Source: Leptospira biflexa | GTDB taxonomy: Bacteria; Spirochaetota; UBA4802; UB4802 | NCBI GenBank assembly: GCA_020721905.1 | Contig: DYLU01000002.1 | Location: 11,314-75,313 of the forward strand | Reading direction: 5' to 3' | DNA: 64,000 nt | Shown: piece by piece, positions 1,037-8,235 of the stretch | Layout of the letters: every line of letters begins with the position of its first letter | How positions within the stretch are numbered: the stretch's first letter is position 1 | The notes under the pieces: generated by a model | Seen by the model: only the letters and a program-made list of their open reading frames with translations | Database searches by the model: none | Told to the model about the DNA's origin: nothing | Made by a program: the position numbers and the translations under genes

Positions 1037-3112
1037 ATGGCAGATTCAAAAGATAGCCCCCAGTTTATCAGAAAACGGGATGGCAGGATAGTTCCTTTTA
1101 ATATTGAAAAGATTACAGAAGCAATATTCAAGGCTGCCCGTGCTGTTGGCGGCACTGACAGAAATACTGCAGCTCAAATTGCTAAATCAGTGGTTGATAT
1201 ATTGTCTTTATTATATAAAGGCGAGCATATTCCAACAGTTGAAAATGTTCAGGATTTAGTTGAAAAGATGCTCATAGAAAAAGGGCATGCAAAAGTTGCA
1301 AAAGCCTACATTCTGTACCGTGAACAGCACCGTAAAATACGTGAAGCGAAAAGCCTTTTCAGTGAAGGTATTCAGCTTATTGAAGATTACCTTGACAGAT
1401 CAGACTGGCGTGTAAACGAAAACAGCAATATGAGTTATTCTTTGCAGGGTTTAAACAATCATATTGCATCTGCAGTAACAGCTAAATACTGGCTTGAACG
1501 AATTTATCCTCCCGAAATCAGAGATGCACATGTTAATTGTGATCTTCATTTACATGATTTAGGATTGCTTTCTGCATACTGCGTTGGCTGGGATTTGCGC
1601 GACCTTTTGCTGAGCGGGTTTGGTGGTGTCCCCGGCAAAGTTGAAAGTAAACCTGCAAAACATTTCAGAAGTGCACTGGGACAGATAGTTAATTTTTTCT
1701 ATACCCTGCAGGGTGAATCGGCAGGTGCTCAAGCCTTTGCAAACTTTGATACGTATCTGGCTCCATTCATACGTTACGATAACTTAGATTATGCTGGCGT
1801 AAAACAGTGCCTGCAGGAATTTATTTTCAATATGAATATACCTACCCGTGTAGGATTCCAAACACCATTTACCAATATCACACTTGACCTTACTGTTCCC
1901 CGTTCTATAGCTGATGAACATGTTATCATTGGGGGACAATTCATGGTTGAGACATACGCACAGTTTCAAAAAGAAATGGATATCTTCAATACCGCCTTTG
2001 CTGAATGCATGCTTGAAGGTGATGCTCGCCACAGAATATTCACATTCCCCATACCCACATACAATATCACCAAAGATTTTGACTGGGAAAATCCTGCAAT
2101 AAACCTGCTATGGGAAATTACTGCTAAATATGGTATACCCTATTTTGCAAACTTTGTCAATTCTGACATGGATCCGGATGATGCACGTTCCATGTGCTGC
2201 CGTCTGCGACTTGATAACAGGGAACTACGCAAACGGGGTGGAGGTCTGTTTGGTGCAAATCCACTAACCGGAAGTATTGGTGTAGTAACCATTAATATGC
2301 CGCGTCTTGGATACCTTTCCAAAACAAAAGATGAATTTTTTGACAATCTTGCTCATTTAATGGATTTAGCTCGAAATTCATTGGAAATTAAACGTAAAGT
2401 TCTGGAAAACTTTACTGCTAATAATCTTTATCCTTATACTAGGGTTTATTTACGTGATGTATATCAACGATTCCAAAAATACTGGGTTAATCATTTCTCA
2501 ACTATTGGCCTTGTTGGGATGAACGAAGCCTGCCTTAATCTTTTAGGTCAGGACATAACAACTGAAGAAGGGAAAGAGTTCACTGCTCAGGTACTGGATT
2601 TTATGCGTGATAAAATTACCACCTATCAGCATGAAACGGGTAATTTATATAATCTGGAAGCAACACCTGCTGAGGGAGTAAGTTACCGCTTTGCGCGCCA
2701 TGATAAAAACAAATTCCCGGACATCATAACATCCGGTAAAAATGAGCCATATTATACCAACTCTATTCATCCACCGGTAGGATTTGCTCATGATATATTT
2801 GATTTGCTGGATCACCAGGATCAACTGCAGACAAAATTCACCGGGGGCACGGTAGTTCATTGCTTTTTAGGTGAAAAGATTGATGATCCGCAGATGGTTA
2901 AACTTCTGGTTAAAACCATTGCTTTTAACTACCATATACCATATTTTACCATTACGCCAACGTTCAGTATTTGTCCTGTTCATGGGTATATTCCGGGCAA
3001 TCATAAATTTTGTCCTTATGAGCATACAAAAGAAGAACTTGAGATGTTTGGCATAGATGTCGAAATTGAAGATAAAAAGCCATTGCAGATTGAAACACAG
3101 ATACAGCAGTAA
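1037..3112 (+). CDS. nrdD: anaerobic ribonucleoside-triphosphate reductase (class III RNR), main body, ending at an in-frame TAA before the glycyl-radical site
   Basis: N-terminal ATP-cone (IRKRDGRIVPFNIEKI...YILYREQH), thiyl-radical loop SMCCRLRLD followed by GGGLFGANPLTGSIGVVTINMPRLGY, and a C-terminal metal-ribbon remnant CPVH..CPYEH. GGAG lies 8 nt upstream of the ATG. Confidence 0.93.
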   Translation: MADSKDSPQFIRKRDGRIVPFNIEKITEAIFKAARAVGGTDRNTAAQIAKSVVDILSLLYKGEHIPTVENVQDLVEKMLIEKGHAKVAKAYILYREQHRKIREAKSLFSEGIQLIEDYLDRSDWRVNENSNMSYSLQGLNNHIASAVTAKYWLERIYPPEIRDAHVNCDLHLHDLGLLSAYCVGWDLRDLLLSGFGGVPGKVESKPAKHFRSALGQIVNFFYTLQGESAGAQAFANFDTYLAPFIRYDNLDYAGVKQCLQEFIFNMNIPTRVGFQTPFTNITLDLTVPRSIADEHVIIGGQFMVETYAQFQKEMDIFNTAFAECMLEGDARHRIFTFPIPTYNITKDFDWENPAINLLWEITAKYGIPYFANFVNSDMDPDDARSMCCRLRLDNRELRKRGGGLFGANPLTGSIGVVTINMPRLGYLSKTKDEFFDNLAHLMDLARNSLEIKRKVLENFTANNLYPYTRVYLRDVYQRFQKYWVNHFSTIGLVGMNEACLNLLGQDITTEEGKEFTAQVLDFMRDKITTYQHETGNLYNLEATPAEGVSYRFARHDKNKFPDIITSGKNEPYYTNSIHPPVGFAHDIFDLLDHQDQLQTKFTGGTVVHCFLGEKIDDPQMVKLLVKTIAFNYHIPYFTITPTFSICPVHGYIPGNHKFCPYEHTKEELEMFGIDVEIEDKKPLQIETQIQQ

Positions 3113-3154
3113 GAAATTTATAATTTTGTTACTATATTAAACGGGGGTTACATA

Positions 3155-3346
3155 ATGCAAAAGCACCACGAAAAAAAAATACCTGTTGAAGTATATTCAA
3201 GGGTTGTTGGGTATTTCAGACCAGTTAACCAATGGAATAAAGGAAAACAGGAAGAATTTCAAGAAAGAAAAGAGTTTATGAAAGATGAATTATTTAAGGT
3301 AGCCACACATGAATATTCGGGGTATTCAAAAAACCTCACTCATTGA
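3155..3346 (+). CDS. detached NrdD C-terminal glycyl-radical domain (63 aa)
   Basis: Contains the class III RNR radical motif VYSRVVGYFRPVNQWNKGKQEEFQERK. It is in the same frame as nrdD, separated by TAA 3110-3112 plus 14 sense codons. GGGGG 3143-3147 lies 7 nt upstream of ATG 3155. Confidence 0.75.
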   Translation: MQKHHEKKIPVEVYSRVVGYFRPVNQWNKGKQEEFQERKEFMKDELFKVATHEYSGYSKNLTH

Positions 3347-4004
3347 CTTTCCGCAGGTTATTAGCACTGTCCTTTTTACCGGTGGATGCAATTTACGCTG
3401 TCTTTACTGCCATAATGCATCATTGGCGTGCAATGACTGTAATTTGCAACAATATTCAAACCATGAGGTGCTGGAATTTTTACATAAACGAAAGCACCTT
3501 ATTGGTGGTGTTGTCATTACCGGTGGTGAACCAACACTTGCAAAGGGTATAATTCCCTTTTTAGAAAAGGTAAAAGAAACAGGATTAAAAGTAAAATTGG
3601 ACACTAATGGATTTCAGCCTCAGGTGTTAAAAAAAATACTGTCACAAAGGCTTGTTGACTACATAGCAATAGATATTAAAACATCACCAGAAAAATATCC
3701 AGTATTGACAAGAACAAAACTTTCATTTGATTTAATCATGAAATCTATTGCACTGCTCAAAGAACACCACGTAACATTTGAACTCAGGACAACCTGTGTA
3801 CCAGGGTTTGTAACCATTGAAGATTTTCAAGGTATAAAAGAGCGTGTGGGTAATGTTATGTATTATTATCTGCAGCAATTTGATAACCAGCACACACTGG
3901 ATGAATCGCTTCGCACAGTTAAACCTTACCCTAAAGATGTTTTATATTCATTCCAGCAGTTTGTAAAAACATTTGCTACCATTTGTGAAATTCGGGGATT
4001 ATAA
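3309..4004 (+). CDS. nrdG: anaerobic ribonucleotide reductase activating protein (radical SAM)
   Basis: N-terminus MNIRGIQKTSLIDFPQVISTVLFTGGCNLRCLYCHN carries the CxxxCxxC radical-SAM cluster. It sits directly after nrdD and overlaps the glycyl-radical ORF by 38 nt in another frame. Confidence 0.9.
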   Translation: MNIRGIQKTSLIDFPQVISTVLFTGGCNLRCLYCHNASLACNDCNLQQYSNHEVLEFLHKRKHLIGGVVITGGEPTLAKGIIPFLEKVKETGLKVKLDTNGFQPQVLKKILSQRLVDYIAIDIKTSPEKYPVLTRTKLSFDLIMKSIALLKEHHVTFELRTTCVPGFVTIEDFQGIKERVGNVMYYYLQQFDNQHTLDESLRTVKPYPKDVLYSFQQFVKTFATICEIRGL

Positions 4005-4075
4005 AAAATCTGTTGACATTACCTGATATCATTTTTTCTGTGTTATGTATTAATTTCAGGGAGGACAAATAATTT

Positions 4076-4171
4076 ATGAGCAAGCAGTATAGTCCACGCA
4101 TTAAGCGCAAACGTGCAAAACGAAGACTCAAAAGAAAGAAAAAAATGCTGGCAAAAAAGTTATCTAAATAG
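4076..4171 (+). CDS. candidate small, extremely basic protein (31 aa), below the ORF-track cutoff
   Basis: ATG 4076 is preceded by GGGAGG with about 9-nt spacing. My translation is MSKQYSPRIKRKRAKRRLKRKKKMLAKKLSK*. It lies downstream of nrdG on the same strand. Confidence 0.35.
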   Translation: MSKQYSPRIKRKRAKRRLKRKKKMLAKKLSK

Positions 4172-4173
4172 CA

Positions 4174-6855
4174 TTACTTATTTTTAGATTTCAGAATAAT
4201 CTCATCACCAACAACAAGCAGGATGTTATCAATATCAATTTTATCAGAAGAGGGATATGTAGCATTACAGGTAAGCCATATCCCTTTTTCATTACTAAGT
4301 GGTATATACAAGAGCACCGTATCAAAGTATAATCGATTATCCTTGTTCTTCTTGTCAATAAATCTGCTTGAATGGGAACAACCAAAGGCAATATATGACA
4401 TGATCCCATTTTTTGCAAGCATGTAGCGTAAATACAGTATTGCATCAAGCTGTGTGCCTTTCCCTGATCTAGAAAATTGCAAAAGCGATGTAGCTCTATA
4501 AGGGGTGGGATTTATGGTATATTGTTTCAGTTTCCCCATAAGCTCTGATATGATTTCTTCAAATGTCTTCCCGTTTAATTCAGTTTCAGTAAGAAAATAA
4601 TCTGCAATTTTAAAATGCAAACTTTCTTCATTAATCCATTCAATCAGGTTTTCAGATGTAAGCGCCATTATCATAAAATTCCTGTTATTATGTGCCGATA
4701 GTTCATAGGCATTAAATCTGATGTGCTGTATGCCATGCTCTTCTTTTGTAACATTGCCCTGCAATTCTGATACTATAACAGGCTCAACCTGTGAACCCAT
4801 AACAACAATATCCATATCAAATTGCGATAGATTATAATTCTGCTGGATGTGCACTACAGGAATTCCCTTGTTTATAATAAATGATAGTTCCACCAGGGCA
4901 TAGCTGTTCAGGTTTTTATCAAAACATGCCTTAATTCCCCTTTGCAGTGAATTGTTTAAATATTTTATTTTCTTTTTTTCAATCTTTCCGTTTTCACTAA
5001 CCAGGTATATTGTACATCCTGTTATTGTTACATCGCTACCAAAAGCATAATCATTTACCTGTGATGAACTGCCAGTATAATACAGGTCATAAATTGAACA
5101 ATATGCAGTATTATTAATAAATCGTAATGCATAACAAGAATACAGCAGGCCATTAGTTTTTCCTTGTATAGTTTCAAAGGCTAATCGTGAAAAAACATTT
5201 TGATACACATAATCATCAAAAGCATTCTTCAAATAATCACTATGCCATGGTATATCAGAAACTATCACCTCATGCTTCTTGCGGTACATGCTTCCATCAG
5301 ATTCTTCCAGATCAGCTATTGTTGCCAGCAATGCATATGCATGTGAATCAAATCCCCGGGCTATTCTTTTAAACAATACACTTTTTGCATCATTGTATCG
5401 CTTTAATGCCACGAGCGCATGTATATATTTATCAAAAAATCTACTTTCATTATTGTGCTCAACAACAGATACTATCGATCCAAACTGCTCATTCTGCTCA
5501 TAATATTGAATTAATAAAGCTGTAACTTTATCATCTGGGTCTGGTATTGATTCTAATATACTGATGGCTTTTTCAATGTCATGGTATGCTGTAATTTGAG
5601 CAACGATATAAGCAAGATCATTACTGTAAGGATACTCTTTTAACAAAGATTCAAGATTTGCTCTTTTATTAATCAGTACATCTTTTTCTCTATACAACAG
5701 ATAAATCAATAATGGTAGATAATGCCCTTGATTGGCATCAAAAGATTTCTTTAGATATATATAATCATAGTAGCTTTGCCATAATACTGATCTAAACTTT
5801 TCATTATTTTTTAGTAAACTTTGCATTACCAGCTCATATCCCAAAACCTTGTTTTCATATTTATATTTCATCAATAGAGATAAAAATCTGCAGGCTGCTA
5901 ACTCATTGTATGAGTGTAAAGCTTCTTTATAATATTTCAATGCTTCATAACTTTGCAGCGATTCATAAAAAAGCGCAAGTTTAAAAGCCGGATCATTGGA
6001 ACGCTGCTTATTATACTGTGTAAGCAATTGATTTTCATATTCATAATATGTTTCATACCATTGGACATCATGATAATATGAATTTTCTGTATCAGGTAAA
6101 TGTATACTCTGGTCAGTATCATCATAAAACTGTATTTTCAAAAACATGTCTTCTGCTAGTTTATAATATAGGGCAACTGTAAAGCCGCCTTCAGATTCTA
6201 TATGAAACATCCTGACCAGCTTTTTCTTATCCGTCAGAGCATTAACACATATTTTTTTCCCGTTAATATAACAAACATAATCCATATTTGAATAAATCCT
6301 GAGTGTAACGGGTACACTGGCTTTAAAAGACCCACTGCAAAGGCCAGTAGCGTTATACTCCTGAGTAAATTGCTTAACAGGGATAAAACCATTTTGATAT
6401 TGAAATACACGTACCTTGTTTTTACCTGATAAGAAATAAGGATTATTGGTGCATTGAAGAGCTGCAATGCTTTGCGGCATTTTTTCTTTGATATTATCGT
6501 ATATATCCCATCGATTGTTACCCTTAGTGGCGTCTTTTTGGTGTAACTCATCAATGAGAGTAACAATATCCTGAACATACAGCTTTTCAGCATCTGTATC
6601 AGCACTTCTGATTAATTCTTTAAGTAACAATACTGTCTTACTGACCCCTGCAACTTGTTGTATATGATGAATATCTGCCAGAATTAATGCAGGATCAGCT
6701 TTCCCTGATACTATTTCTTTTTCATACAGTTCTATTATATTGAGTGAATTGCCGTTACAGTATATTTGCTTACTGTCTTTACTGATAACAGGCAGAGCTT
6801 TTACAGGAACTATCGCCACCAGTACAATGGCCGTTACTATTAATAATTTATTCAT
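4174..6855 (-). CDS. large secreted hypothetical protein (893 aa); helical-repeat middle, possible DUF3857/pseudo-transglutaminase-like C-terminal part
   Basis: Signal peptide MNKLLIVTAIVLVAIVPVKALP, a Tyr/Leu-rich TPR-like helical region, and C-terminal GKGTQLDAILYLRYMLAKNGI. That segment resembles a transglutaminase-core helix but has Thr where the catalytic Cys would be. The gene starts 12 nt after the mnmE stop. Confidence 0.6.
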   Translation of the reverse strand: MNKLLIVTAIVLVAIVPVKALPVISKDSKQIYCNGNSLNIIELYEKEIVSGKADPALILADIHHIQQVAGVSKTVLLLKELIRSADTDAEKLYVQDIVTLIDELHQKDATKGNNRWDIYDNIKEKMPQSIAALQCTNNPYFLSGKNKVRVFQYQNGFIPVKQFTQEYNATGLCSGSFKASVPVTLRIYSNMDYVCYINGKKICVNALTDKKKLVRMFHIESEGGFTVALYYKLAEDMFLKIQFYDDTDQSIHLPDTENSYYHDVQWYETYYEYENQLLTQYNKQRSNDPAFKLALFYESLQSYEALKYYKEALHSYNELAACRFLSLLMKYKYENKVLGYELVMQSLLKNNEKFRSVLWQSYYDYIYLKKSFDANQGHYLPLLIYLLYREKDVLINKRANLESLLKEYPYSNDLAYIVAQITAYHDIEKAISILESIPDPDDKVTALLIQYYEQNEQFGSIVSVVEHNNESRFFDKYIHALVALKRYNDAKSVLFKRIARGFDSHAYALLATIADLEESDGSMYRKKHEVIVSDIPWHSDYLKNAFDDYVYQNVFSRLAFETIQGKTNGLLYSCYALRFINNTAYCSIYDLYYTGSSSQVNDYAFGSDVTITGCTIYLVSENGKIEKKKIKYLNNSLQRGIKACFDKNLNSYALVELSFIINKGIPVVHIQQNYNLSQFDMDIVVMGSQVEPVIVSELQGNVTKEEHGIQHIRFNAYELSAHNNRNFMIMALTSENLIEWINEESLHFKIADYFLTETELNGKTFEEIISELMGKLKQYTINPTPYRATSLLQFSRSGKGTQLDAILYLRYMLAKNGIMSYIAFGCSHSSRFIDKKNKDNRLYFDTVLLYIPLSNEKGIWLTCNATYPSSDKIDIDNILLVVGDEIILKSKNK

Positions 6856-6867
6856 AAAGTTTCAATA

Positions 6868-8235
6868 TCACTTGCCAATGCAAAAGCGTGAAAAAATAGA
6901 ATTCAGAACATCATCAACGGATATTTCACCAGTGACCGCTCCTATTGTATCAATAACATTTTGAAGTGCTGATGCAATAATTTCATGGGGGCTGCTTATG
7001 GCTATATGATGAAGCGCTTCCCGTGCATACTCAAGAGACTGCTCCAGTAATTGTATCATACGAATATCAGCAATAAAAGAATTTTTGTACTCAACATACT
7101 GTGACCTGATAAATTGATATACCGCATCCTCCAGTGCAGGGACACCATAGCCTGTTTTTGCAGAAAACACAATTCCTTTTTGTCCAATAGCATCCTGAAT
7201 TATTGCTATTGATTCTTGTGTTGCAATATCAGTTTTATTAATGACTGGTATAAACGGTTTATTGCTCATTAATTTCATGATATGCTCATCATCAGAAGTA
7301 AGACCCGTTACTGCATCAATGATAAAAATTATCAGTGATACCTCATCTATCAGTTTGTAGCTCCGCTGCACACCTAAAAGTTCAATCCCATCTGCATATT
7401 CATGTATTCCGGCAGTATCAAGCAGATTGCATTGCATACCCTTAATTGAAACCGATTCTTTTATCACATCCCGGGTTGTCCCCGGTGTATCCGATACAAT
7501 TGCCCGTTCATGATTGAGCATACAGTTTAGAAAGCTGGATTTACCTGCATTGGGTTTTCCTACAATTGCAATATCAATACCGTGAGAAAGATGCTGGCCA
7601 ATCCTACATCTGTTAAGTATTTCCTGTAGTTTATCAATGATAGCGAGCATTCTTTGATGTGCATTTTCAAACGATATAATCTCAATATCATCATCCACAA
7701 AGTCAATAGCACATTCAATATCTGCCTTCAATTCAATAATGTTATGTTTAATATCATTGATTGCATTTTTCAGTGACCCATGCTTTTGCTGTATTGCGGT
7801 TGCTATCTCCCATTCACTGCGTGCAGCAATAATATGGTTTATTGCTTCTGCTTCAGTCAGATCCATCTTGCCATGTAAAAATGCCCGTCTGGTAAACTCA
7901 CCCGGTTCAGCTATCCGTACATTCAGTGCAATAATACAATTCATTATTTTATTTACTATGATTGGATTGCCATGGCAGAATATTTCCACCATATCCTCAC
8001 CTGTATAACTTTGCGGGCGTTTATAATAAATGACAATACAATCATCAATTTCTTCATTGTTATCATGAATACTACCGTAATATGCATATCGGGGAATAAA
8101 TTCCCGGGTATGCCCTTGTAGCCTGAATATAGAAGAAGTGACCCGTAAAGAATCAGGGCCGCTTATCCGTATAATGGCTATTGGTGAATGTACTGGCGGG
8201 GTTGCCGGAGCACATATTGTATCATCCATCTGCAT
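6868..8235 (-). CDS. mnmE: tRNA modification GTPase MnmE (TrmE)
   Basis: G-domain motifs GKPNAGKSS and DTAG, C-terminal FCIGK motif, and the conserved position after jag. Confidence 0.93.
   Translation of the reverse strand: MQMDDTICAPATPPVHSPIAIIRISGPDSLRVTSSIFRLQGHTREFIPRYAYYGSIHDNNEEIDDCIVIYYKRPQSYTGEDMVEIFCHGNPIIVNKIMNCIIALNVRIAEPGEFTRRAFLHGKMDLTEAEAINHIIAARSEWEIATAIQQKHGSLKNAINDIKHNIIELKADIECAIDFVDDDIEIISFENAHQRMLAIIDKLQEILNRCRIGQHLSHGIDIAIVGKPNAGKSSFLNCMLNHERAIVSDTPGTTRDVIKESVSIKGMQCNLLDTAGIHEYADGIELLGVQRSYKLIDEVSLIIFIIDAVTGLTSDDEHIMKLMSNKPFIPVINKTDIATQESIAIIQDAIGQKGIVFSAKTGYGVPALEDAVYQFIRSQYVEYKNSFIADIRMIQLLEQSLEYAREALHHIAISSPHEIIASALQNVIDTIGAVTGEISVDDVLNSIFSRFCIGK

Follow-up and report, generated by a model that had tools for sequence, protein, structure and literature searches.

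In textbooks, glycyl radical enzymes carry their radical on a single chain, and the radical loop must leave the barrel for activation. Here, we describe a class III (anaerobic) ribonucleotide reductase (RNR) locus of Leptospira biflexa in which the catalytic chain is very probably encoded by two adjacent, separately translated genes. The 64,000-nucleotide stretch that was analysed (contig DYLU01000002.1, positions 11,314 to 75,313), referred to as the window throughout, contains an nrdD core gene and, behind a stop codon, a second open reading frame (ORF) of 63 amino acids (aa) that carries the glycyl-radical motif. The closest described enzyme is the canonical NrdD of the T. maritima and N. 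bacilliformis type, which corresponds to NrdDh of RNRdb and NrdD2 of Wei et al. It has in common with the locus described here the PRK08270/PF13597 fold, the ATP-cone, an SCCR-type cysteine loop, a ribbon with a His ligand, the RVVGY motif and an adjacent nrdG activase gene. In canonical fused NrdD the radical strand comes directly after the ribbon, whereas in the split enzyme the chain ends in a new conserved tail and the radical loop lies on a separate gene. The split NrdD is a variant of a known enzyme that is widespread and apparently undescribed, and full-text literature searches for a described split NrdD, or for a spare-part protein outside pyruvate formate-lyase (PFL), returned nothing relevant.

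The closest concept is provided by the PFL spare parts GrcA/YfiD of E. coli and Y06I of phage T4, which are likewise small free-standing modules with a radical glycine, and copies encoded by phages are found in both cases. GrcA is homologous to the radical domain of PFL and rescues the full-length enzyme after oxygen cleavage; the small protein described here, in contrast, is of the NrdD type and appears to be obligatory. A 2026 review states that formate lyases are the only enzymes with known spare-part proteins, and that it is undetermined whether other glycyl radical enzymes have them (PMC13450708).

Divided RNR genes have been reported in two other settings. In Pseudomonas aeruginosa and its relatives, the class II enzyme NrdJa/NrdJb is encoded by two adjacent genes with a C-terminal functional module on the second chain (PMC9669993), and it belongs to another RNR class than the split NrdD. 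A 2022 survey of RNR extensions considered split domains to be possibly distinct to class II (PMC9669993). RNR genes of phages are split by mobile elements, as in the group I intron of T4 nrdD, the division of Aeh1 nrdA into nrdA-a and nrdA-b by mobE, and the fragmented nrdD of phiAS4, and phage RNR genes in pieces can still yield active enzyme (PMC3653736). These phage splits are lineage-specific, lie at other positions and come from introns, inteins and homing endonucleases. The NrdD split, in contrast, consists of a plain noncoding spacer of 16-371 nucleotides (nt) and has the same break point across many lineages, exactly at a domain boundary.

The nrdD core and its radical glycine lie on separate open reading frames

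A first-pass annotation of the window had assigned an ATP-cone, a CCRLRLD loop and a metal ribbon to the core, and matches to PF03477, PF13597 and PRK08270 together with the motif positions bear this out. The ATP-cone (PF03477) occupies core residues 10-99 and the NRDD domain (PF13597) residues 128-665, the latter covering profile positions 1-530 of 562 (E = 1.2e-181). The core also matches NCBIfam PRK08270 with 1055 bits (cut-off 548) over profile positions 4-652 of 684, and TIGR02487 with 524 bits (cut-off 326). It ends at NRDD position 530 without a glycine motif, and the remainder of the family profile is found in the small ORF, which matches PF13597 at positions 531-562 (E = 3.3e-10) and PRK08270 at positions 651-682. 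The two ORFs therefore divide the profiles exactly between them, and only together do they contain the radical glycine expected of an NrdD. Residues 8-42 of the small ORF align with residues 610-644 of T. maritima NrdD in solved structures, placing G19 on G621, which is the radical glycine of that enzyme (PMC4493059). No other RVxGY-type motif was detected in any of the six frames of the window. Matches of the small ORF in Pfam and NCBIfam are exclusively to NrdD models (PF13597, TIGR02487, PRK08270 and two further NrdD equivalogs), and the same scans detected no homology to the PFL-type glycyl radical domain. A family dedicated to the small protein was found in none of NCBIfam, Pfam and PHROGs.

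The coordinates of both ORFs, the TAA between them, the 14 stop-free codons that follow it and the 7 nt separating a Shine-Dalgarno (SD) sequence, GGGGG, from the ATG of the small ORF are all as first annotated. The two ORFs share one reading frame, their starts being (3155-1037)/3 = 706 codons apart. Four readings had been proposed for this arrangement: a genuine two-polypeptide NrdD, a recent nonsense mutation, read-through of the stop, and a base-call error. It is the comparison of relatives that distinguishes among them.

The split is conserved among spirochaete relatives

A genome scan with one genome per species gave 140 matches, and the locus counts given here are from the best 80, all of which are metagenome-assembled genomes (MAGs) of Spirochaetota/Leptospirales. 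In 80 of 80 loci the radical motif is located in a short open stretch that is closed upstream by stops. The small ORFs are 46-71 aa long. Almost every one offers an ATG, and only two have a start without an SD-like motif ahead of it. Where the partner core was examined, it lacks a radical glycine in every locus. The stop is conserved in relatives down to approximately 55% identity of the small ORF, and the SD and ATG are kept in the relatives examined with few exceptions, which supports the reading as a two-polypeptide NrdD whose radical ORF has its own SD.

A lone in-frame TAA with an open frame behind it does have the look of a fresh mutation, in which case nrdD would be a decaying pseudogene and the downstream ORF a leftover. 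This is exceedingly improbable given that the stop is present in all 80 relatives and that the small ORF, with its own SD and ATG, is under strong purifying selection: the ratio of nonsynonymous to synonymous substitution rates (dN/dS) is 0.02-0.2 for the first 51 codons, which are not overlapped by nrdG, among the window and its closest relatives. Moreover, the core ends in a conserved tail that is specific to the family, and the spacer evolves as noncoding DNA with frame-breaking indels. Four relatives (L003-L006) with small ORFs 94-98% identical to that of the window have spacers of 41, 43, 39 and 37 nt, compared to 42 nt in the window. When these are aligned, the TAA, GGGGG and ATG are all kept, whereas the spacer has indels of 1, 1, 3 and 5 nt and more substitutions than either coding flank.

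The same data bear on the proposal that stop read-through, frameshifting or ribosome hopping yields one fused NrdD chain, to which the common frame in the window and the 14 stop-free codons lend some appeal. Core ends were located in 78 loci. Relative to the core stop, the small ORF keeps the frame in 24 of them and is shifted to +1 in 31 and to +2 in 23, as expected of independent ORFs, and the gaps of 16-371 nt contain stops. Approximately two-thirds of the relatives thus have the two ORFs in different frames. Together with the frame-breaking indels in spacers of otherwise nearly identical loci, this indicates that the in-frame arrangement in the window is due to chance, and the single in-frame TAA is a coincidence that does not mark a recent event. 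In another lineage two genes are located between the core and the small ORF, in phages the small gene occurs alone, and the Rfam scan described below detected no recoding element in the window. We therefore regard a fused translation product as very improbable.

A base-call or assembly error is an a priori possibility for a window taken from a metagenome-type assembly. However, two further assemblies, the Logan assembly of SRR1559028 and the JGI assembly 3300000227, contain an identical small ORF behind the same TAA and a spacer of 42 nt, and the stop is conserved in 80 genomes that were assembled by many groups, which leaves this explanation scarcely credible. The first-pass readings other than the two-polypeptide NrdD are refuted by the conserved stop, SD and ATG, by the relatives in other frames and by the identical small ORF in the two further assemblies. 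The linker between ribbon and glycine that had been described as long is actually a 28-residue core tail and a 10-residue lead of the small protein, with untranslated DNA in between.

Among the relatives, two arrangements of the spacer region differ from that of the window. In one Spirochaetota MAG (L026), two tandem small ORFs at 3764-3943 (59 aa) and 3998-4171 (57 aa) are located between the nrdD core and nrdG, each with an ATG and an SD-like motif. In two others (L007:3630-4000 and L008:3632-4000) the spacer is approximately 370 nt, AT-rich and contains short repeated motifs of the CTGAA/TTCAG type. Examination of this spacer for a remnant ORF showed it to be noncoding in all six frames, and it may represent an inserted small repeat element.

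The small ORF belongs to a family of stand-alone proteins

A database search with the 63-aa protein returned 701 homologues, far more than a chance ORF would have. The best 120 of these are all stand-alone proteins of 44-96 aa, many of them from Spirochaetota MAGs with 56-87% identity. In an alignment of 43 homologues (A1) there are 21 invariant columns, centred on PxExYSRVxGYFRPxNQWNxGKxEEFxxR, and the lead before the radical strand is only about 8-12 residues. A YEYxG tail also seems conserved in the small protein. As the start of nrdG overlaps the small ORF, this conservation probably belongs to the N-terminus of NrdG (M.IRGIQK), seen in a different frame. In related MAGs, the core and small ORFs are listed by NCBI as separate coding sequences, for example MGB4269537.1 and MGB4269536.1, and in public records the small ORF is annotated as either "hypothetical protein" or "anaerobic ribonucleoside-triphosphate reductase".

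The core has an intact cysteine loop, a modified ribbon and a new tail

The motif SMCCRLR is located at core residues 385-391 and CCRLRLD at 387-393, and both C387 and C388 are invariant in the core alignment (A3). SMCCRLR matches SCCR of T. maritima NrdD and MGCR of T4 NrdD (PMC4493059), and C388 is presumed to be the thiyl-radical cysteine. C387 corresponds to the "third Cys" that marks NrdD2/3-type enzymes (PMC4493059). Given this CC pair, disulfide/thioredoxin-type chemistry resembling that of NrdD2 is plausible for the split enzyme, and we infer a reductant of that kind.

The metal ribbon of T. maritima NrdD binds Zn via CxxxHx6CxxC (PMC4493059). Among the 78 loci with a located core C-terminus, 77 share the ribbon pattern CP[VI]HGY...CPxxH, and the lone exception (L072) has CxxC...CxxC. 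The two His ligands of the window core had been pointed out as unusual. This does not hold for the first His, which is normal in this NrdD clade, where fused relatives show CPxH...CPxC. It does hold for the last ligand, as CPxxH in place of CPxC is the sole ribbon feature special to the split subfamily.

Downstream of the ribbon, the core tail is conserved across the 78 loci as (T/S)xEEL..(F/Y/H)G(I/V)(E/D)V beyond which the sequence varies, and its length among relatives is 14-31 aa. Scoring of 55 fused representatives showed that this extension is not present in fused NrdDs, in which the first ribbon Cys is separated from the Arg of RVxGY by a fixed 25-27 residues. In two further fused proteins (P0172 and P0252), which have a CxxxH-type ribbon, 49 and 40 residues, respectively, separate this Cys from the Arg; these proteins could be intermediates toward the split, or re-fusions.

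Modelling of the two pieces as one chain

An artificial fusion of the core and small protein was modelled with AlphaFold2, using an alignment of 66 rows that included fused relatives. The model had a mean predicted local distance difference test score (pLDDT) of 89.4 and a predicted template modelling score (pTM) of 0.84. Residues ~10-40 of the small protein were modelled as a beta-hairpin with G19 at its tip, followed by a helix, at a pLDDT of 92-95. The junction, comprising the end of the core tail and the start of the small protein, had a pLDDT of 54-65; within the tail, core residues 665-670 were modelled as a helix (pLDDT ~84) and the rest was of low confidence. When the model was used to search the PDB, the top matches were all class III RNR structures. 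As modelled, the two pieces are compatible with a normal NrdD architecture.

A split at the same boundary occurs in other NrdD lineages

In order to look beyond the spirochaetes, a profile-free search with the core was made against 1.84 billion cluster representatives, giving 8757 hits, of which the best 150 (50%-identity representatives) were sorted. There were 55 fused proteins, 54 that stop after the ribbon without a Gly motif, 10 whose sequence breaks off at the ribbon, perhaps through a contig end, and 31 that were uninformative. The fused relatives are 50-60% identical to the window core. The 54 Gly-less representatives stop 5-45 residues past the ribbon, and their ribbons are of the CxxxH type in 12, CxxC in 38 and other in 4. 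Other NrdD lineages that have an ordinary CPxC ribbon are broken at the same domain boundary, and their gene order varies. For example, the operon of P0125 (L083:3001-6584) consists of nrdR, a core with an intein, a 45-aa ORF (...VYSRVVGW...) and nrdG, while P0218 (L114:2501-6523), in a phage-like context with MazG and DnaB, has the order core, DUF7487, nrdG and a 61-aa ORF with the Gly motif. Around two cores without a Gly motif (L112:1935-5070 and L113:2501-6317), no small ORF was found within 2.5 kb, so that a radical partner, if one exists, would have to come from a gene located elsewhere. The L113 core is followed by an unrelated 95-aa ORF, and the L112 core by a 325-aa Cys/Gly-rich ORF. 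Split and fused forms intermingle in a rough neighbour-joining tree built from 138 representatives, but this tree, computed from simple distances on an alignment full of inteins, is too crude for counting split events.

Viral contigs were surveyed separately using the best 80 of 316 that bear a core. A core of this clade is fused in 63 of the 80 and split with a small ORF 0-2 kb away in 5. For another 7, scoring gave no Gly motif and no small ORF within 3 kb, and two of these results look like scoring artefacts. At two viral loci (L120 and L166) the small ORF is 1.3-2 kb downstream of the core.

Relatives of the core (P0121-P0270) are unusually intein-rich: their match to the core is broken into as many as four stretches, and the longest protein has 1879 aa (P0135), another (P0130) having 1753 aa. 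The breaks fall repeatedly near query residues 388 (at the CC loop), 274, 175 and 225-250. The window core itself is without inteins. A split intein that joins the two chains by trans-splicing, restoring an ordinary fused NrdD, would be in keeping with a clade in which many NrdDs are 1000-1880 aa long with 2-4 matched stretches and in which Pfam Intein_splicing hits are on record. However, the core tail of 14-31 aa and the small-ORF lead of 8-12 aa are too short for intein halves, no intein family in Pfam or NCBIfam matches either ORF, and there is no terminal His-Asn followed by Cys, Ser or Thr at a plausible junction of the small ORF. We give trans-splicing next to no credence.

The small gene also occurs on its own in phages and prophages

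On 26 IMG/VR viral contigs (L086-L111), a gene near position 5000 of each locus encodes a protein of 53-75 aa that is closely related to the small one. Neither a core nor nrdG was found within 5 kb of these copies, and none of the 26 contigs is shared with the best 80 core-bearing viral contigs. In addition, three Spirochaetota MAGs with a split operon have a further copy of the small gene in phage-like surroundings, where no core or nrdG was found in a search to ~4 kb. One (L049:3992-4165) adjoins a Mu-type transposition ATPase, Gam and a phrog_286 protein, the second (L066:1831-2007) an endolysin and a transglycosylase, and the third (L072:3944-4159) a DNA methyltransferase. As judged from these locations, the small gene behaves as an independent, mobile genetic unit, and its stand-alone copies, which resemble the GrcA homologue Y06I of phage T4, are the strongest comparative hint that the product works in trans.

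These copies raise the question of whether the small protein serves, like GrcA, purely as a spare part for a normal full-length NrdD encoded elsewhere, with the core at this locus being inactive or having another role. Extra copies in prophages, on viral contigs and in tandem in L026 fit such a role, as do MAGs with two nrdD loci (for example L051 and L067), and the view of the present genome is confined to 64 kb. Nevertheless, the 80 best genome matches of the small protein include no fused NrdD, conservation of the core is high and its catalytic motifs are intact, and the fixed order of core, small gene and nrdG together with translational overlap argues for joint work. We consider the spare-part role on its own improbable. 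The likeness to GrcA that had been suggested in the first-pass annotation is apt as regards a small radical module, but not as regards function as a back-up: since the core never has a radical domain of its own, the small protein would be an obligate subunit.

Organization of the locus

The features of the locus are listed in Table 1. The ORF following the small gene matches TIGR02495 NrdG2 (E = 1e-60, 204 bits, cut-off 131), and its start overlaps the 3' end of the small ORF by 38 nt (3309-3346). An overlap of 23, 38 or 50 nt with nrdG is present in 68 of the 84 small ORFs examined, which suggests translational coupling of the two genes. Scanning of the spacer (3113-3154) revealed no promoter-like or terminator-like site that could uncouple expression of the core from that of the small gene, so that the core, the small gene and nrdG most likely form a single operon. 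An Rfam scan of the whole window gave no family at gathering score and no recoding element. This empty result, together with a spacer of only 42 nt (16-371 nt among relatives), led us to reject the presence there of a group I intron or any other RNA element. Convergent to nrdG is a conserved 893-aa ORF (4174-6855, minus strand) with a predicted N-terminal hydrophobic segment and no Pfam hit on record, adjoining mnmE (6868-8235, minus strand). The same neighbour is found in L001, L007 and L008.

Table 1. Features of the split nrdD locus, in window coordinates
Feature	Position	Strand	Remarks
nrdD core gene	1037..3112	+	691 aa; ATP-cone, 10-stranded barrel, Cys loop, metal ribbon, 28-aa tail; without radical glycine
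Cys387-Cys388 codons, SMCCRLRLD loop	2195..2200	+	motif position in core
Metal ribbon C646-P-V-H649 ... C659-P-Y-E-H663	2972..3025	+	candidate ligands, from sequence pattern
Core C-terminal tail TKEELEMFGIDVEIEDKKPLQIETQIQQ	3026..3109	+	compared across the tails of 78 loci
TAA stop of core gene	3110..3112	+	kept in L003-L006; stop at the same point in every relative
Spacer, untranslated	3113..3154	+	42 nt; contains Shine-Dalgarno GGGGG (3143-3147), 7 nt from ATG at 3155
Small glycyl-radical subunit gene	3155..3346	+	63 aa; NRDD profile positions 531-562
Radical-glycine codon GGG = G19, within VYSRVVGYFRPVNQWNKGK	3209-3211	+	aligned to T. maritima NrdD G621
nrdG activase gene	3309..4004	+	231 aa; radical S-adenosylmethionine enzyme; TIGR02495 NrdG2

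Discussion

We have described a class III RNR locus in which the catalytic chain is, with high probability, made as two polypeptides from neighbouring genes. The two-gene architecture is conserved among relatives, the small ORF is under purifying selection, both pieces are exactly homologous to parts of fused NrdD, and the genes are linked to nrdG. We infer that the chains assemble non-covalently, that the small chain can be activated when free, that the enzyme is active and that the arrangement carries a selective advantage.

In the mechanism that we propose, the 691-aa core would provide the ATP-cone, the barrel, the Cys387-Cys388 loop and a Cys2His2-type ribbon, and the 63-aa protein would provide only the hairpin with the radical glycine (G19) and the helix after it. 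NrdG would abstract a hydrogen from G19 while the small chain is free or loosely bound. The small chain would then be held non-covalently in the barrel, at the site that the C-terminal radical loop occupies in an ordinary NrdD, where the glycyl radical on G19 would generate a thiyl radical on C388, and nucleotide reduction would proceed as in the fused enzymes. In P. copri NrdD, cryo-electron microscopy and hydrogen-deuterium exchange showed the radical domain to be highly mobile, and disordered once the ATP-cone has bound dATP (PMC11226230). Such mobility makes an untethered radical loop structurally plausible. By analogy, dissociation of the small chain could be used for regulation, and its release could be how the ATP-cone turns the enzyme off.

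Oxygen breaks the protein chain where the glycyl radical is located (PMC13450708). Economy of repair is therefore a likely advantage of the split, as only a 7-kDa chain would be lost: the oxygen-labile, self-cleaving part would become a cheap, replaceable component that can be activated off the enzyme. The further idea that the small protein is an exchangeable, consumable radical carrier, which is activated by NrdG off the enzyme, docks into the core and is replaced after oxygen cleavage, with phage copies serving to keep or take over the anaerobic deoxynucleoside triphosphate supply of the host, is a tentative one, and on it we lean slightly toward doubt.

Several points weigh against a two-polypeptide enzyme as described here. 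Production of the 7-kDa chain, its activation by NrdG and its binding to the core are predictions from sequence. The AlphaFold2 model is of a forced fusion, and so speaks for compatibility only and not for assembly. Within it, the Cys loop, whose counterpart in the crystal structure of T. maritima NrdD is disordered (PMC4493059), was modelled at low confidence (pLDDT 46-58). The fourth candidate ribbon ligand, a His at +4 and not a Cys at +3, is unlike that of every characterised NrdD. Finally, all relatives of the window are MAGs or metagenomic contigs, and as the genome was seen through 64 kb only, a second, fused nrdD elsewhere is possible.

The finding has a practical side for annotation. 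About half of the nearest NrdD clusters are without a radical domain, and pipelines could score such an nrdD as truncated or non-functional. For the biochemistry of the family, a separate radical protein of 5-8 kDa offers a handle on how the activase recognizes its substrate, how the radical loop enters the barrel and how oxygen damage is repaired. The locus bears directly on the question left open by the 2026 review, namely whether spare-part radical proteins exist outside PFL, and if the small protein is indeed a consumable carrier, autonomous radical subunits or spare parts would for the first time extend beyond that enzyme. The phage-borne copies, in turn, suggest a new kind of auxiliary metabolic gene.

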